DNA from: Verrucomicrobiota bacterium
Lineage (GTDB): Bacteria; Verrucomicrobiota; Verrucomicrobiia; Limisphaerales; UBA11358
NCBI GenBank assembly: GCA_050013895.1
Contig: JBEKEJ010000001.1
Span: forward strand, 1 to 42,311
Direction: 5' to 3'
Length of the DNA: 42,311 bases
The notes beneath the pieces are model-generated. The model ran no database searches, was not told where the DNA came from, and saw nothing but the letters and a program-made list of their open reading frames with translations. Positions 1,376-7,091 of this stretch are shown one piece after another. Every line of letters starts with the position of its first letter. Within the stretch, counting starts at the first letter, position 1. The position numbers and the translations under genes are program-made.

Positions 1376-2816
1376 GACGAGCGCCCCGTCACGCGAGACT
1401 GCCGTAGAGATCGTCCGCCGGCTCCAGGCCGCCGGCTTCGCCGCGTTCTGGGTCGGCGGCTGCGTGCGCGATTTTCTGCTCGGACGCAAACCGCAGGATT
1501 ACGACATCGCCACGGACGCCAAGCCGGACCAGGTCGAGAAGCTTTTTCAACGCACTCTCGCCGTCGGACGCAAATTCGGCGTAATGATTGTGGCCGAAGC
1601 CAAACACCAGTTCCAGGTTGCCACGTTTCGCGCCGAGGCGGATTATCGGGACGGTCGCCGCCCGGCCAGGGTTGTTTTCGCCAGCGCCGACGCCGACGCG
1701 CAGCGCCGTGACTTCACCGTCAACGGGCTGTTTTACGATCCGGTTGCGAAAAAACTTCACGATTGGGTCGGCGGCGAAAAGGATTTGCGCGCGAAAATCA
1801 TCCGCACCATCGGCCCGCCGGAGGAACGCTTTGCCGAAGACCATTTGCGCCTGCTGCGCGCGGTGCGGTTTGCGGCGCAGTTGGATTTTGAAATCGAGCC
1901 GCAGACCTTCGCCGCCGTCAAATCGCTCGCGCCGAAAATCAAGCTCATCAGCGCCGAGCGGATTCGCGACGAACTCATCAAGCTGTTTGCGCCATCGCCG
2001 CTTGGAGTTCCGCCTTCAGGCGGCGCTCAAAGATTGCCGTCCAAACCGCTTGAAGGCGGAACTCCAAACCGCAGCCAGGCCGCTCGCGGATTGATTTTGC
2101 TGCGCGAAAGCGGACTGCTGGAACACATTTTGCCGGAACTGGCGGCGACAATCTCGTGCGGGCAATCGCCGGATTATCATCCCGAAGGCACCGTGTTCGA
2201 GCACATCCGGTTGATGCTGGAGCAGCTGCCGCCCCGGCCTCCGCTCAACCGCAGCTCCGGCGCGGCCAGGGCGCACGAATCCTTGCCGTGGGCGGTGATT
2301 TTGCATGACATCGGCAAGCCCGTGACGGCGGAGCGCGATGCCGTGACGGGCAATATCCATTTTTACGAGCACGAAAAAATCGGGGCGGCGATGGCGGAAA
2401 GGATTTTGCGGCGGCTGCGTTTTCCCAAAAAGCAGATCGAGGAGATTGTCGCGTGCGTGCGGCAGCACATGCAGTTCAAGGACGTAAAGCAGATGCGGAC
2501 GGCAACGCTGCGCCGGCTGTTATTGCGCGAGACCTTCCCGCTGGAACTGGAGTTGCACCGGCTCGACTGCCTCGGTTCTCACGGCGACCTGGGGCATTAT
2601 GATTTCCTGGTGGAACAGGCGGCCGAGTTAAGAAAAAAGCCGACCATCCGCCCGCCCCTGCTCACCGGAAAAGATTTGATCACACTCGGCATGAAACCCG
2701 GTCCGGCGATGGGCGCGTTGTTGAGTGAAATCCGCGAGCGGCAGTTGCAGGATGAATTGAAAACGCCCCTCCAGGCCCGCCGTTGGGCAAAGACCAGGAT
2801 CAAAAATGCGCGATGA
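1374..2816 (+). CDS. cca: CCA-adding tRNA nucleotidyltransferase (class II, with HD domain)
   Basis: 480-aa ORF. The N-terminus has FWVGGCVRDFLLGRKPQDYDIATDAKP and RDFTVNGLFYD (PolyA_pol head). The C-terminal half has the HD motif ILHDIGKP. Confidence 0.85.
   Translation: MTSAPSRETAVEIVRRLQAAGFAAFWVGGCVRDFLLGRKPQDYDIATDAKPDQVEKLFQRTLAVGRKFGVMIVAEAKHQFQVATFRAEADYRDGRRPARVVFASADADAQRRDFTVNGLFYDPVAKKLHDWVGGEKDLRAKIIRTIGPPEERFAEDHLRLLRAVRFAAQLDFEIEPQTFAAVKSLAPKIKLISAERIRDELIKLFAPSPLGVPPSGGAQRLPSKPLEGGTPNRSQAARGLILLRESGLLEHILPELAATISCGQSPDYHPEGTVFEHIRLMLEQLPPRPPLNRSSGAARAHESLPWAVILHDIGKPVTAERDAVTGNIHFYEHEKIGAAMAERILRRLRFPKKQIEEIVACVRQHMQFKDVKQMRTATLRRLLLRETFPLELELHRLDCLGSHGDLGHYDFLVEQAAELRKKPTIRPPLLTGKDLITLGMKPGPAMGALLSEIRERQLQDELKTPLQARRWAKTRIKNAR
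2002..2067. repeat. 66-nt palindromic REP/MITE-like element inserted in frame within cca
   Basis: TTGGAGTTCCGCCTTCAGGCGG (2002-2023) and CCGCTTGAAGGCGGAACTCCAA (2046-2067) are reverse complements at 21 of 22 positions, with a 22-nt loop. The element encodes LGVPPSGGAQRLPSKPLEGGTP (flanked by PSP and NRSQ in the likely insert) between LIKLFA and AARGLILLRESGLL. Confidence 0.75.
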
Positions 2817-2833
2817 GCCTGCCGAAATCTGCT

Positions 2834-2876
2834 GAAAAAAAGGGCGCGGATTTTGTCCGCGCCCTTTTGTTTGTTT
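2834..2876. terminator. Bidirectional rho-independent terminator between convergent cca and the sugar kinase gene
   Basis: The sequence reads AAAAAAA-GGGCGCGGA-ttttg-TCCGCGCCC-TTTTGTTTGTTT. It has a perfect 9-bp GC stem, an A-run upstream and a T-run downstream. Confidence 0.75.
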
Positions 2877-2885
2877 AAGAATGTT

Positions 2886-3968
2886 TTACCGCTGGATGCG
2901 GGCCGAACCGCCTTTGGCAAAGGCCTTCACCTGCTCCACGGTCGCCATCGTCGTGTCGCCGGGGAACGTCGTCAGCAACGCGCCGTGCGCCCAGCCCAGC
3001 TTCACCGCCTGTTCCGGTTCCTCGCCCGTCAGCAGGCCGTGGAAAAATCCCGACGCGAAGCCATCGCCGCCGCCCACGCGGTCATACACGTTCAGTTCGG
3101 CCGTCGGCGCGGTGTAGGTCTTCCCGTCAATCCACGCCACGGCGCTCCAGCTGTGATGGTTGGTCGAGTGGACTTCGCGCAGCGTGGTGGCCACAATCTT
3201 CGCCTTCGGATATTTCTTCACGACCTGGTCCATCATCCCGAAGAACACGCTCGGATCGAGCTTGGACTTGGCGACCACGTCCGGGCCTTTCAAGCCCAGG
3301 CCCTTTTGCAAATCCTCCTCGTTGCCGACGAGGACGTCGCAATGCTCGACGATGCGTTTCATCACCGACAACGCCTTTTCCTGTCCGCCCCAGATGTCCC
3401 AGAGCTTCTGGCGGAAGTTCAAATCGAACGACGTGATGGCGCCCGCCGCCTTCGCCGCCTTCATGCCTTCGATGATCAGCTCACCCGTGGTCTCGGACAG
3501 CGCCGCGAAGATGCCGCCGCTGTGGAACCAGCGCACGCCCTGGCCGAAGATTTCCTTCCAGTTAAAATCGCCCGGCTTGAGCAAGCCGCCCGCCTCGTTG
3601 CTGCGGTTGTAGAACACCACCGGCGCGCGCACGCCGTAGCCCCGGTCGCTATAGACCGTCGCGTGGTTCGGGCCGCGCACGCCGTCGTGCTTGAACCGCT
3701 TGTAGAACGGTCTCACGCCCATCGCCTTCACGCGCTCGGCAATCATGTCGCCGATGGGATAATCCACCATGGCGGTGGCGATGCCGGTGTTCATGCGGAA
3801 ACAATCGGCGAGGTTAGCGGCGCAGTTGAATTCGCCGCCGCTGACGTGGATTTTGCATTCCGTGGCCTTGCGGAAGGGGATGATGCCTGGATCGAGGCGG
3901 TGGACCAGAGCGCCGAGGGACAAAAAGTCCAGCGCGCCCTTTTCGGGGATGTTCAAACCATATTTCAT
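2886..3968 (-). CDS. PfkB-family carbohydrate kinase (2-dehydro-3-deoxygluconokinase-like)
   Basis: The ATG at 3968 within ORF 2886..4247 gives MKYGLNIPEKGALDFLSLGALVHRLDPG. The C-terminal PfkB signature is DRVGGGDGFASGFFHGLL. The 93 codons upstream in the ORF are REP-derived. Confidence 0.8.
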   Translation of the reverse strand: MKYGLNIPEKGALDFLSLGALVHRLDPGIIPFRKATECKIHVSGGEFNCAANLADCFRMNTGIATAMVDYPIGDMIAERVKAMGVRPFYKRFKHDGVRGPNHATVYSDRGYGVRAPVVFYNRSNEAGGLLKPGDFNWKEIFGQGVRWFHSGGIFAALSETTGELIIEGMKAAKAAGAITSFDLNFRQKLWDIWGGQEKALSVMKRIVEHCDVLVGNEEDLQKGLGLKGPDVVAKSKLDPSVFFGMMDQVVKKYPKAKIVATTLREVHSTNHHSWSAVAWIDGKTYTAPTAELNVYDRVGGGDGFASGFFHGLLTGEEPEQAVKLGWAHGALLTTFPGDTTMATVEQVKAFAKGGSARIQR

Positions 3969-4160: not shown

Positions 4161-4168
4161 CTCCGTAG
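4161..4168. repeat. Target-site duplication, left copy (CTCCGTAG)
   Basis: This 8-mer abuts the left IR. The identical 8-mer abuts the right IR at 6469-6476. Confidence 0.85.
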
Positions 4169-4189
4169 GGCAATAATATACTTGACTCA
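4169..4189. repeat. Left terminal inverted repeat (IR-L)
   Basis: GGCAATAATATACTTGACTCA. Its exact reverse complement is at 6448-6468. Confidence 0.9.
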
Positions 4190-4426
4190 TTGGCTTTTCT
4201 TTAGTAGGAAAAATACCCCTGTGTAAATCACGCCTAGAACAAACCATTCAGACCAAAGTTTGAGCAGGTCTGGTCGGTAATGATTCTCCGGCTGGATAAA
4301 AAATAAGCTCAACCTTTGATGGTGTTGATGAATAATTGGGTCGTTGTAATACCACGGACACAATGTCAGCGTTGCCGCAAAAAGGACGAGACATACAGCC
4401 GTCAGATATTTTTGAGGTTTGTTCAT
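4187..4426 (-). CDS. Small two-TM membrane protein (IS passenger ORF, start uncertain)
   Basis: The ATG at 4426 gives MNKPQKYLTAVCLVLFAATLTLCPWYY...LWSEWFVLGVIYTGVFFLLKKSQ, with two hydrophobic helices. A longer version initiated at TTG 4597 would overlap the transposase stop. The stop codon (4187-4189) lies inside IR-L. No Shine-Dalgarno motif precedes 4426. Confidence 0.4.
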   Translation of the reverse strand: MNKPQKYLTAVCLVLFAATLTLCPWYYNDPIIHQHHQRLSLFFIQPENHYRPDLLKLWSEWFVLGVIYTGVFFLLKKSQ

Positions 4427-4574
4427 AAACTTTGTTTTGGATTTTGTTGTGATTTTCTTTTCACGCGCTCGTCCCTGATTTTCTTGTTCAACTCCGCCTT
4501 GGGAACCCGCATTAACCCCTTGGCAAGAGCTTGGAACTTTTGGAACGGAGTTTTCCCCGATATGGTTTTTTGAT

Positions 4575-5513
4575 TCATACTGGTCGAGGTTCTCCAATCA
4601 GTCGTGAATAGGTCAATCGTTTTCCAAAAATGCCTTTGACAGCTTCCAAAAAACGGTTTGAGTCGTTTTCTTCCCTCAAATTAAACCGAAACGCCTGTTC
4701 GTCGAGGTAGCGAAACAAATGAAATGGCTCGACGCTGACATAGGTGCCCTTGATGCCCCGTTTGAGCAGGCTCCAGTAATTTTCCATGCCGTTCGTATGC
4801 ACATTGCCGCGAACGTATTCTTTTGCATGGTCAATCACTTGATGGATGAAATCGCGCGCAAGCCCTTTGTATCCTACCCAATAGTCAGTGAAAATTTGTG
4901 CGCCTTTCTCGACGTTTTGATAAACCTCGTTTTGGAGCGTCTGTAATTTTGTATTGGGGATGTGTTTGGTTTTAACCTTACCATCCCGCTCCAAAATCCC
5001 CATGACGATTGCCTTGCCAACTCCGCCCGTGCCGCGTCCACGTCTGCGATTTCGGTCTTTGTGCATATTGCGGGAAAGCCCGCCAATCCAAGTTTCGTCA
5101 ATCTCGACCTCTCCGTTGAACTTTTCAAAGGTGCCAGTCTGCATGGCGAGTCTTATTCTTTGCAGCATGAACCAGGCTGTTTTTTGCGTGACTCCGATTG
5201 CCCGATGGACTTCATAGGAACTGACACCGTTTTTATCATTGGCAATCATCCAGATTGCCGTAAGCCATTTGTCCAACGGCAACGCACTATCTTCAATAAT
5301 CGTGCCGACGCGCACGGAGAACTGGCCTTTTTTTGTGCAGCGTTTGCATTTCCAGATTTTGCGCGTGGCGATGAATGAAACATCTTCGCATTGGCAGCGC
5401 GGGCATTTCACCTTTTCAGGCCAGCGCAGTTTAACCATGAAATCAAACGCCACTTGCTGATCTGCAAAATAGCGGACTGCTTCGACTAGGGTTTGTGGAA
5501 ATTCGTTATTCAT
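4575..5513 (-). CDS. IS1595-family transposase (zinc-ribbon N-terminus + ISXO2-like DDE domain)
   Basis: The ATG at 5513 gives MNNEFPQTLVEAVRYFADQQVAFDFMVKLRWPEKVKCPRCQCEDVSFIATRKIWKCKRCTKKGQFSVRVGTIIEDSALPLDKWL..VEIDETWIGG. This is the classic IS1595 transposase layout. Confidence 0.9.
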   Translation of the reverse strand: MNNEFPQTLVEAVRYFADQQVAFDFMVKLRWPEKVKCPRCQCEDVSFIATRKIWKCKRCTKKGQFSVRVGTIIEDSALPLDKWLTAIWMIANDKNGVSSYEVHRAIGVTQKTAWFMLQRIRLAMQTGTFEKFNGEVEIDETWIGGLSRNMHKDRNRRRGRGTGGVGKAIVMGILERDGKVKTKHIPNTKLQTLQNEVYQNVEKGAQIFTDYWVGYKGLARDFIHQVIDHAKEYVRGNVHTNGMENYWSLLKRGIKGTYVSVEPFHLFRYLDEQAFRFNLREENDSNRFLEAVKGIFGKRLTYSRLIGEPRPV

Positions 5514-6393
5514 TTTCTTTTTTTGATTTAGTTTTGTCGTCCTTGGACGCGGCTGCCATCGCGCGTGCAAACGCATTGTTCCTAACAGATTGGATTGACT
5601 CTCTTTCCCTTTGCGACTTGGCCACCAATTCCTTTAAGAAGTCACGGTTTCGGTAAGCTTTTCCAAGTTCGTCAACTCTTGCTGCTATATTGGAAAGTTC
5701 CTCGACTTCTTTTTGGGGGAACATTTGGACGTAAGCGTCTTTATTGTCTATTAATTGCTTCAAAATTTGTCCGGTCAGAGAGGTCATACTGTGAATAATT
5801 CCGAGTTTCGTTTTTCCCCCACAGTAAGCATCGTGTTTTTTAACTATTTCCACCACATAAACAGCGAGCACCGCAGCGTGATCGAAAACCATGTCCGGCG
5901 CAGAAAGTTCACTCAATAAATAAGCACCCAAATTTGCCCCGCATCCAATCGCTTCATAAAATGAATTCACTTTGTTTGCTATTCCAACAATCATGTCTAT
6001 TGTAAAAAGACAGGGCTTGCCGTCGAAAAAATAGGCAATCATCAGTTCGCATCCCAACTCATGTTTCCAAACAAATTCGCGCAGTTCTTCCACCGTGCAA
6101 TCGCCTTGTTGAAATCGAACCCTGTCTTTTAGTTGCCGCATGGCTCGTTCCGCAAGTTCTGCAACCATTCTGTAATCGGTAATTTCCTTGTCTTTTGCCA
6201 AGCTGTTAAAAATTTCAACCGCTTGTCCTGAAAATGGCGCATACCCAGCCTGCGCGACTAAAGCGGTAAGGTTGGCAAACTCGACACTGCTTATCTTTTC
6301 CGTATCGGTTCGCTTCGTCGTGCCAGATGTGGTCTGACTATCACTGGCCAATACGATTGCATTTTCACAAATTATTCCGACGATGATTGTCAC
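5506..6393 (-). CDS. Proteasome-beta/HslV-type Ntn (N-terminal threonine) hydrolase with a roughly 100-aa C-terminal extension
   Basis: The GTG start at 6393 is preceded by AAGGA. The N-terminus is (M)TIIVGIICENAIVLASDSQTTSGTTKRTDTEK, which places Thr at residue 1, Asp at 17 and Lys at 32. A G-x-G turn is present as AIGCGANLG. The stop overlaps the transposase ATG (ATGAATAA). Confidence 0.65.
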   Translation of the reverse strand: MTIIVGIICENAIVLASDSQTTSGTTKRTDTEKISSVEFANLTALVAQAGYAPFSGQAVEIFNSLAKDKEITDYRMVAELAERAMRQLKDRVRFQQGDCTVEELREFVWKHELGCELMIAYFFDGKPCLFTIDMIVGIANKVNSFYEAIGCGANLGAYLLSELSAPDMVFDHAAVLAVYVVEIVKKHDAYCGGKTKLGIIHSMTSLTGQILKQLIDNKDAYVQMFPQKEVEELSNIAARVDELGKAYRNRDFLKELVAKSQRERESIQSVRNNAFARAMAAASKDDKTKSKKENE

Positions 6394-6447
6394 TGGATTT
6401 TTCCTTTTCGTTAAGCGTTGCGGAAAAGGATGCCGAAGCTGACAGTG

Positions 6448-6468
6448 TGAGTCAAGTATATTATTGCC
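6448..6468. repeat. Right terminal inverted repeat (IR-R)
   Basis: TGAGTCAAGTATATTATTGCC is the exact reverse complement of 4169-4189. Confidence 0.9.
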
Positions 6469-6476
6469 CTCCGTAG
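6469..6476. repeat. Target-site duplication, right copy (CTCCGTAG)
   Basis: Identical to 4161-4168 and directly abutting IR-R. Confidence 0.85.
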
Positions 6477-6673
6477 CAGCACTACTGCGGAGGGTGGAGA
6501 GGCCGGCGCTCCGATGGCAGTGTCAGGTTACGCCAATTCCCGCTGCCGCTTTTTCTGGACAAACTTTTTGGCAGGGCGCAATGTCAAAAACATGAAATCG
6601 GACAGGCTGCATGGCACAAGAGACAGGCTGTACGATGCGGCGTCCAATATCGGTTAGGCTGACTTAGATTGTC

Positions 6674-6928
6674 GTGAAGCTTAGAAATCCAGTTTGGTGG
6701 CTCTTAACAGCGGGGTGTTTGGGTGCGGTTCTTAGCTGTTTAGGATTTTACGTCTTCCCTCCAGACCGAGTCGGTGTTGGCGATCCTGGATTTTGGACTG
6801 CCACTTGCCTTGCACTTCTCTTTTGGTTTGGGGTTATTTTGTTGGCCGTTTCATTGTTGGCGGGCATAGCGGGAGTGATTCGACATTCCTGTAGATGCGG
6901 CAAGCAGAAGAATGTGCCAAGCAGATGA
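6674..6928 (+). CDS. Hypothetical small membrane protein
   Basis: GTG-initiated 84-aa ORF with two hydrophobic segments (WWLLTAGCLGAVLSCLGFYVF and ATCLALLFWFGVILLAVSLLAGIAGVI). No recognisable family. Confidence 0.3.
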   Translation: MKLRNPVWWLLTAGCLGAVLSCLGFYVFPPDRVGVGDPGFWTATCLALLFWFGVILLAVSLLAGIAGVIRHSCRCGKQKNVPSR

Positions 6929-7091
6929 CATGAATCCTCAGCCTAATATGAGGATAGCTGTAAACTTCACCGATTGCTCGTTCGATTTTTTCCAAGAAAG
7001 TGAAAAGGCGGCTCTCTGCCGGGGAGCCGCTGCGAATCAGTTCCGAACGTTGCCACACCGGATGCGCGTGGTGTAAGTTGGGCCGGAATTT

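Follow-up and report, generated by a model that had tools for sequence, protein, structure and literature searches.

The stretch of DNA analysed here, a window of 42,311 nucleotides from a Verrucomicrobiota bacterium (assembly GCA_050013895.1, contig JBEKEJ010000001.1), carries at positions 4169 to 6468 an intact, recently inserted insertion sequence (IS) of the IS1595 family, which is of the passenger-carrying "transporter IS" (tIS) type and whose first gene encodes a protease of the proteasome family. This protease (5506-6393, minus strand, 295 aa, GTG start) is predicted to be a catalytically equipped N-terminal nucleophile (Ntn) threonine hydrolase without propeptide, of the proteasome-beta/Anbu-like type, on the basis of the Pfam family PF00227, an AlphaFold model, Foldseek matches and conserved catalytic residues. 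We were able to show that elements of the same organization recur at unrelated sites and that the position in front of their transposase gene is an exchangeable cargo slot. These observations led us to favor, with a probability of roughly 0.6, a role of the protease as self-sufficient cargo that is co-expressed with the transposase and serves in conflict or persistence rather than in the control of transposition.

The open reading frame (ORF) of the protease opens with GTG-ACA, and its product begins with (M)TIIVGIICENAIVLASDSQTTSGTTKRTDTEK..., in which Thr is residue 2. The GTG is the only possible start codon, since the 43 open codons upstream of it contain no ATG, GTG or TTG. As there is no propeptide and the GTG directly precedes the Thr codon, the nucleophile Thr1 would become the N-terminal residue once the initiator Met is removed. 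In the numbering after Met removal the further catalytic residues are Asp17 and Lys32, the latter of which pairs in the alignment with the proteasomal Lys33 across a one-residue gap. The peptide AIGCGANLG is found at residues 148-156, the C-terminal tail reads KDDKTKSKKENE, and the stop codon overlaps the ATG of the transposase gene (ATGAATAA, 5513 to 5506 on the minus strand). The GTG-ACA start, the positions of Thr, Asp and Lys, the AIGCGANLG turn, the tail and the overlap had been named in the original prediction, made from the DNA letters alone, and were confirmed in the sequence; its statement that no HslU-like AAA+ partner is encoded in the element or beside it was borne out by the flanking genes, and no such gene was found in any related neighborhood examined. 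In the vicinity just one AAA+ protein is encoded, a sigma-54 activator of the NtrC type at a distance of about 7 kb. A fusion of protease and transposase by frameshifting was considered separately, for which a run of seven A residues resembling a slippery heptamer (TCAAAAAAAG, 5514-5530, minus strand), 10 nt before the transposase ATG, was the candidate site. It was ruled out, since the transposase lies in the +1 frame, the -1 frame runs directly into a TGA and other elements do not share the run of A residues.

The protease matches the Pfam family PF00227 (Proteasome) with 41.1 bits against a cut-off of 22.4 (E 1.9e-10), the match extending over residues 3-200 and over positions 6-189 of the 189 positions of the profile. 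Chance can hardly account for such a match, and of 58 homologs, 55 have a precomputed assignment to this family. Further matches were obtained with TIGR03634, the profile of the archaeal beta subunit (4e-10, far under the equivalog cut-off), and with the PHROG profile "peptidase HslV family" (4e-9). A family profile built from 57 homologs had its best match in the archaeal 20S beta subunit of M. jannaschii (3h4p, 2.7e-11), followed by other beta and alpha subunits and by a designed Anbu (4.6e-4), and it retrieved no HslV chain at 1e-3 or better. The AlphaFold monomer model (predicted local distance difference test, pLDDT, 93.4; predicted template modeling score, pTM, 0.86) has the canonical Ntn strands and the helices H1-H4 of the alpha-beta-beta-alpha sandwich. 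With this model, Foldseek returned 1,172 chains of the PDB at E of 1e-3 or better, among them 1pma, 1j2q, eukaryotic beta subunits and Anbu (5nyg, 5nyw), all with probability 1.0; the target TM-scores for 1pma, 1j2q and Anbu were 0.68-0.79. The highest query-normalized TM-score was that of Anbu (0.59-0.60), where the alignment has about 258 columns and extends into the long C-terminal helix. Profile, Foldseek and model together thus place the protease with 20S beta subunits and Anbu rather than with HslV. The first half of the original assignment, "proteasome-beta/HslV-type", therefore holds and the second does not, and the fold check that had been set beforehand as a refuting test gave a significant proteasome-fold match by sequence as well as by structure.

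Two parts of the protein can be distinguished. The Ntn-hydrolase core (residues 1-225; 5719-6393, minus strand), delimited by the secondary structure of the model, the conserved columns and the alignment to the M. jannaschii beta subunit, contains Thr2 (mature Thr1), Asp18, Lys33, Gly50, G150-C151-G152 and D188-A-Y-C191-G-G. The model shows in addition a short helix (101-110) at the site of the pore loop, an insertion (203-219) and an equivalent of strand S12 (220-224). The core is followed by the C-terminal helix, an elongated H5 of 68 residues (227-294; 5512-5715, minus strand), which forms one continuous helix in the model and varies more than any other part of the protein (6-46% identity between elements). 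Of what had been described as a probably helical extension of about 100 residues, just some 50 residues at the C-terminal end go beyond the canonical fold; the remainder corresponds to strand S12 and to helix H5, which is greatly lengthened and has a counterpart in beta subunits and Anbu.

The conservation of the active site was counted over 194 aligned relatives, unless a smaller denominator is given. Relatives were collected by a word-indexed search, which yielded 58, and by an exhaustive profile search over representatives of 50%-identity clusters, which yielded 2,940 representatives with an E value no higher than 1e-3, of which 411 reached 1e-30. The position of Thr1 is occupied by Thr in 174 relatives and by Ser in 5, the other 15 being gapped fragments; that of Asp17 by Asp in 185 and by Glu in 4; that of Lys33 by Lys in 190 of 190; and that of Gly47, which belongs to the oxyanion site, by Gly in 188. 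The catalytic constellation Thr1/Asp17/Lys33, on which the earlier assignment had been based, is therefore a property of the family. The residue preceding Thr1 is Val, Met or Leu in 184 of 187 relatives, in agreement with GTG, ATG and TTG/CTG starts, and it persists even where gene callers have added an N-terminal extension, which implies that the family is generally without propeptide.

The element itself is 2,300 bp long and has its genes on the minus strand. Its terminal inverted repeats (TIRs) are 21 bp in length and perfect: the protease-distal end (4169-4189), GGCAATAATATACTTGACTCA when read inward, is the exact complement of the protease-proximal end (6448-6468), and inverted ends of this type are kept in at least 20 related loci. 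The ends are abutted by the two copies of an equally perfect 8-bp target-site duplication (CTCCGTAG on the plus strand, 4161-4168 and 6469-6476). The G+C content of the element is 42-49%, against 60-64% in the flanks, where the genes are of the housekeeping type (a PfkB kinase, a LarA-like gene, an MFS transporter and YidC). In the orientation of the protease, the order is leader, protease, transposase, a basic ORF of 51 aa and a hydrophobic ORF of 79 aa, which reaches to the right inverted end. The leader of 54 nt that separates the protease start from the inverted end (6394-6447, minus strand) holds the purine-rich ribosome-binding region AAAAGGAAAAA, and a leader block, GGCATCCTTT, is conserved across related elements. 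In most of the tabulated protease-carrying elements of the first transposase lineage (lineage A) the distance from the element end to the protease start is 73-76 nt; the exceptions are L059 with 67 nt and L064 with 22 nt, where the start is possibly over-called. A promoter scan revealed no consensus sigma-70 promoter at the left end, just the hexamer TTGACT, a possible -35 hexamer, within the protease-proximal inverted end.

The insertion target was a near-perfect intergenic hairpin between the PfkB kinase and the LarA-like gene (6469-6496, CCCTCCGCAGTAGTGCTGCTACGGAGGG in minus-strand reading). The duplicated 8 bp are the 3' arm of the hairpin stem, and for this reason a repeat finder merged duplication and inverted end into a "29-nt, 93% inverted repeat", which in fact consists of the 21-bp TIR and the 8-bp direct target duplication.

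Related loci were gathered in two ways, by looking up proteins and by scanning genome and metagenome collections for patterns; the locus scans were made with an alignment of 16 sequences. The order TIR, protease, transposase, small basic ORF, variable cargo and TIR was found repeated at unrelated sites on other contigs, the flanking genes differ at every independent protease-element locus, and perfect 8-bp duplications, each of a different sequence, are present in 10 independent insertions including that of the window. A second transposase lineage (lineage B), about 35% identical and with the ends GGGATTATATAGTTG, also carries the protease just inside its left end. The association with insertion sequences that the original prediction had called for could thus be verified, as homologs are repeatedly bracketed by IS1595-type ends with 8-bp duplications and lie directly upstream of IS1595 transposases. 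Its candidate partner, the small membrane ORF, did not hold up: this ORF belongs to the variable 3' cargo, and the conserved partner is a basic ORF of 45-52 aa. The protease family is not confined to insertion sequences. Clear loci outside IS1595 elements are L019, which is followed by a Sel1-repeat gene, L020, and L021-28, which have an IS1-type transposase as neighbor, and family members with intact catalytic residues occur also where no transposase is nearby. The hosts of the protease in the genome collection are almost all Verrucomicrobiota metagenome-assembled genomes (MAGs), and the family was met here only in uncultured genomes and metagenomes; a tblastn search of 72,556 plasmid and 50,697 phage records returned nothing.

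Some transposases are under the control of host proteases, such as that of IS903 by Lon. The protease of the window might accordingly be an accessory of transposition, which, made in a fixed ratio to the transposase, would degrade free transposase (cis action, copy-number limit), or which would remove a blocking host protein. The conserved position of its gene speaks for such a role: in lineage A, and in the lineage-B elements L036 and L047, where both genes are on the same strand, it lies directly 5' of the transposase gene with an overlap or with a gap of 1-15 nt. The frequency of the association points in the same direction, both from the side of the protease, where about 26 of 36 distinct loci are linked to IS1595, and in the less biased sample taken from the side of the transposase, where three of five random transposases 66-77% identical to that of the window have a Proteasome-family gene directly upstream (of the other two, one has a different gene of 260 aa and one has no passenger). 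We nevertheless consider an accessory role, although it is the main alternative, rather unlikely, since protease and transposase do not diverge together.

Among ten lineage-A elements the transposases are 66-95% identical (mean 80%), whereas the proteases are 22-61% identical (mean 39%), and the two identities are barely correlated (Pearson r = 0.26, p = 0.08, 45 pairs; a set of seven elements gave r = -0.17). The near-identical transposases of L003 and L059 (95%) are accompanied by proteases that share 33%, and the sliding-window nucleotide identity rises abruptly, from about 40% in the protease to about 88% in the transposase, the step coinciding exactly with the junction of the two genes. 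The sister element L060 (2642-5090) shares the inverted ends and the small basic ORF, its transposase is 74% identical, and it is flanked by a perfect duplication of its own (GGAAGAAA). Its protease slot (2717-3499; also in L061-L063) is occupied by the gene of an all-helical protein of 260 aa that is non-homologous to the protease (hhalign probability 0.1). Three of 20 homologs of this protein match the Pfam family HEPN (PF05168, best E 3.3e-7), and the family has an invariant R-N-x3-H motif; the model of the protein is confident (pLDDT 90.7) and has no significant Foldseek match in the PDB. Since the same backbone occurs with the protease, with a HEPN-like gene or with nothing, the 5' position is an exchangeable cargo slot. 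As judged from these comparisons, the transposase, the small basic ORF and the inverted ends are the conserved backbone of the element, and the protease is a swappable cassette.

Elements with a HEPN-like gene or an empty slot have the same ends and fresh duplications, which implies that the protease is dispensable for transposition. Catalytically intact family members far from any transposase likewise argue against an accessory of the transposase. It is because the slot tolerates another gene or none, because the two proteins show no co-divergence, and because intact copies exist without a transposase, that we favor the role of an autonomous cargo. As such, the protease would have its transcription start at the left end of the element and its translation coupled to that of the transposase, whereby both proteins would be made together. 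The 68-residue C-terminal helix may mediate oligomerization, by analogy with H5 in Anbu, and the assembled particle might work as an ATP-independent peptidase that needs no dedicated unfoldase. Its targets would be proteins of the host or of a competitor, and it would take no part in the chemistry of transposition. In this way it might help the element or its host to persist, be it by defense, by counter-defense or by an addiction-type role. Addiction, abortive infection and control of the transposase had been put forward as possible roles in the original prediction.

Several observations weigh against this interpretation. The position of Ser129 varies among the relatives (Cys 114, Ile 28, Ser 22, Thr 18) and is Cys in the window (G-C151-G, motif in register), the position of Ser169 is Cys in 190 of 192 (in the window D188-A-Y-C191-G-G, again in register), and the position of Asp166 is not invariant (Asp in 136 of 194); the catalytic details may therefore differ from those of the proteasome. 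A simple count of heptads along the C-terminal helix gave no convincing coiled-coil pattern, and the PADLOC defense models match neither the protease nor the small ORFs. Furthermore, the protease gene abuts or overlaps the transposase start in two deeply diverged lineages, to which a role in the life cycle of the IS fits equally well, and it is this conserved overlapping position that keeps the control of transposition in consideration. Such a role is also compatible with the shuffling of modules. A comparable exchange between transposases is known for TnpB. To these points has to be added that the estimates of selection are rough, because dS (synonymous divergence) is near saturation: in comparison with the closest relative, that of L070 (70% identity), the protease has a dN (non-synonymous divergence) of 0.20, a dS of about 2 and a dN/dS of about 0.10, and the transposase a dN/dS of about 0.07.

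The exchange of Ser129 and Ser169 for Cys and the variable Asp166 position might even suggest that the protein is catalytically dead or a non-proteolytic scaffold, that is, a binding protein or a ligase like connectase, which shows that the fold can support ligation (PMC8665760). We regard this as highly improbable. Thr1, Asp17, Lys33 and Gly47 are almost invariant, which would be unexpected for a dead scaffold, the model possesses H1 and H2 and no connectase-type insertion between S3 and S4, and the best structural matches are active beta subunits.

In spite of the rough estimates, the protease gene is clearly kept under purifying selection, with a dN of 0.11 in the core versus 0.44 in the C-terminal helix. 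Decay has been observed in either gene: the protease is frameshifted and the transposase intact in L040 (5001-5893) and L049 (1392-2013), and the transposase is broken or frameshifted and the protease intact in L013 (1061-2226) and L016 (1831-2762). Purifying selection on the core would also be expected of an ordinary host proteostasis gene, a stand-alone protease of the Anbu/BPH type that hitch-hikes on the element and provides a mild benefit under stress, with no link to conflict or to the IS. The copies outside insertion sequences, which adjoin housekeeping genes, and the many stand-alone proteasome homologs that have no AAA+ partner (PMC8665760) are in agreement with this explanation. It appears improbable, however, since most protease loci are IS-borne, the proteases are 22-61% identical where the transposases are 66-95% identical, and the protease occurs in the genome collection almost only in Verrucomicrobiota MAGs; the exchange of the cassette for a HEPN-like gene also points to an accessory function.

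Going beyond the autonomous cargo role, the 5' slot might be a hot-swappable bay for single-gene conflict effectors, such as an ATP-independent threonine protease or a HEPN-type RNase, whereby a plain IS would become a minimal vehicle of defense, counter-defense or addiction and the fast-diverging protease, whose C-terminal helix is variable, would be engaged in an arms race with its protein targets. This is a speculative extension, which we consider doubtful at present; if true, a stand-alone bacterial proteasome homolog would for the first time be placed in a functional context.

Among known systems, the archaeal 20S beta subunits (3h4p; 1pma from T. acidophilum; 1j2q from A. fulgidus) share with the window protease Thr1, Asp17, Lys33, Gly47, strand S12 and helix H5, with the G-x-G and D-x-x-x-G-G motifs in register. 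Unlike them, the window protease has no propeptide and no alpha-subunit partner, is encoded by an IS, shows 13-20% identity, has Cys in place of Ser129 and Ser169, and possesses an extra helix at the pore loop and an H5 of 68 residues. Anbu (5nyg, 5nyw) likewise has a long C-terminal helix H5, which forms an inter-subunit coiled coil, and no propeptide (PMC8665760). The helix of the window protease is much longer, however, and the match in sequence is weak (the designed Anbu at 4.6e-4). The operon of Anbu contains ATP-grasp, alpha-E and transglutaminase-like genes, none of which was found in any protease neighborhood examined. HslV is also an Ntn threonine protease that starts with Met-Thr; the window protease differs in having no HslU partner and in its long H5, HslV having neither S12 nor H5 (PMC8665760).

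Stand-alone bacterial proteasome homologs have, to our knowledge, no known function so far, which applies to Anbu and BPH as well as to more recently described families. Fuchs, Alva and Lupas (2021) reported 22 new families of proteasome homologs, among them the phage-borne PPH and AAH, and predicted C-terminal coiled coils in WPH, ACC and some PHI, the latter with a helical insertion after H1/H2 (PMC8665760). The window protease resembles these families in being stand-alone and without AAA+ partner. With WPH and PHI (cluster representatives WP_040339656.1 and WP_012956871.1; PMC8665760), compared by their description only, it shares the occurrence in the PVC group, an insertion that follows H2 and perhaps the coiled coil predicted at the C-terminus. 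The same authors found no genomic context that would suggest a function, and transposases are unmentioned in their work (PMC8665760). That proteasome homologs can be carried by mobile elements has already been shown by the phage-borne PPH and AAH (PMC8665760), and 30 BFVD entries of phage proteins with the proteasome fold were found by Foldseek at E of 1e-3 or better.

According to the passage of PMC3129680 that cites them, Siguier, Gagnevin and Chandler (2009) defined the passenger-carrying tIS in the IS1595 family. The element of the window agrees with such tIS in its zinc-ribbon DDE transposase, its short TIRs, its 8-bp duplication and its passengers inside the ends that are unrelated to transposition. 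It is unlike known tIS in that the passenger is a proteasome-family protease, lies 5' of the transposase and overlaps it, and occupies a slot that is an exchangeable cassette. Full-text literature searches for proteasome-family cargo together with IS1595, ISXO2, transposase or passenger genes returned nothing relevant. What is added here is the modular cargo slot and a clear genomic context for a proteasome homolog that was not met in the papers searched, tIS and stand-alone homologs being already known. For a sizeable protease family (411 representatives at 1e-30) the context is thereby clear and recurrent, its genes standing first in a mobile IS and being exchanged as a cassette, and the open question of what stand-alone homologs do becomes simple to address experimentally. 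The concept of the transporter IS is extended by a protease of the self-compartmentalizing type as cargo and by a simple IS with a modular slot for alternative effectors.

The transposase of the element (4575-5513, minus strand, 312 aa) is of the IS1595/ISXO2 type, a DDE transposase with an N-terminal zinc ribbon, as indicated by matches to PF12762 (E 2.6e-41), PF12760 (E 9.4e-13) and, over the full length of the profile, NF033547 (E 9.3e-57); its true start, MNNEFPQTL at 5513, was set by comparison with relatives. The start of the 51-aa basic ORF (4423-4578, minus strand) overlaps the transposase stop. This conserved backbone gene has no family match; by tblastn, a basic ORF of 45-52 aa with 60-87% identity directly follows the transposase, whose stop it overlaps, in all full-length lineage-A elements (L001, L003, L004, L008, L018, L034, L059, L060, L065 and L070), with the motif GKTPFQKFQALAKGLMxVPKxEL. 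The 79-aa ORF (4187-4426, minus strand), taken from the ORF list, has two hydrophobic segments and no family match. It lies in a second variable cargo region, which reaches from the small basic ORF to the right inverted end and is empty in elements of 2,006 bp. Elsewhere this 3' region holds a PEGA-domain lipoprotein and a 107-aa ORF (L018, 7187-7884) or other small ORFs; further such regions are found in L008 (6943-7215), L065 (4091-4717) and L070 (4992-6025), and the lengths of the elements span 2,006 to 3,090 bp.

Lineage B shows some peculiarities. In L032 (1371-5107; also in L033) and in L056, the transposase gene follows that of the protease at a distance of 2 kb downstream and in opposite orientation, and three membrane or unknown ORFs lie between the two genes, all inside lineage-B-type ends. 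A palindrome, GTCACCAGTACTGGTGAC, is found about 20-45 nt upstream of the GGGATTATATAGTTG left end in L030, L036, L047, L048 and L053; either the true end of lineage B lies further out or the lineage targets a repeated palindrome. In L047 a second end-like copy abuts the right end, and the target duplication is not cleanly readable. The proteases of this lineage (L036, 934-1926; L047, 4914-5834; L050; L053) have an in-frame ATG 15-17 codons before the conserved V-T, and the basic leader that would result (MNxLRK...) may be a real propeptide or an artefact of gene calling. In lineage A, translation of the leader would give TKRKNPVT, a basic string resembling it, but this leader has no start codon.

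Between the IS and the LarA-like gene, the G+C content of the window (6500-7090) is about 0.50-0.52, compared with 0.62 in the flanks. This stretch includes an ORF on the plus strand (6674-6928) for a hydrophobic protein of 84 aa that has no family match, and it may represent older foreign DNA.

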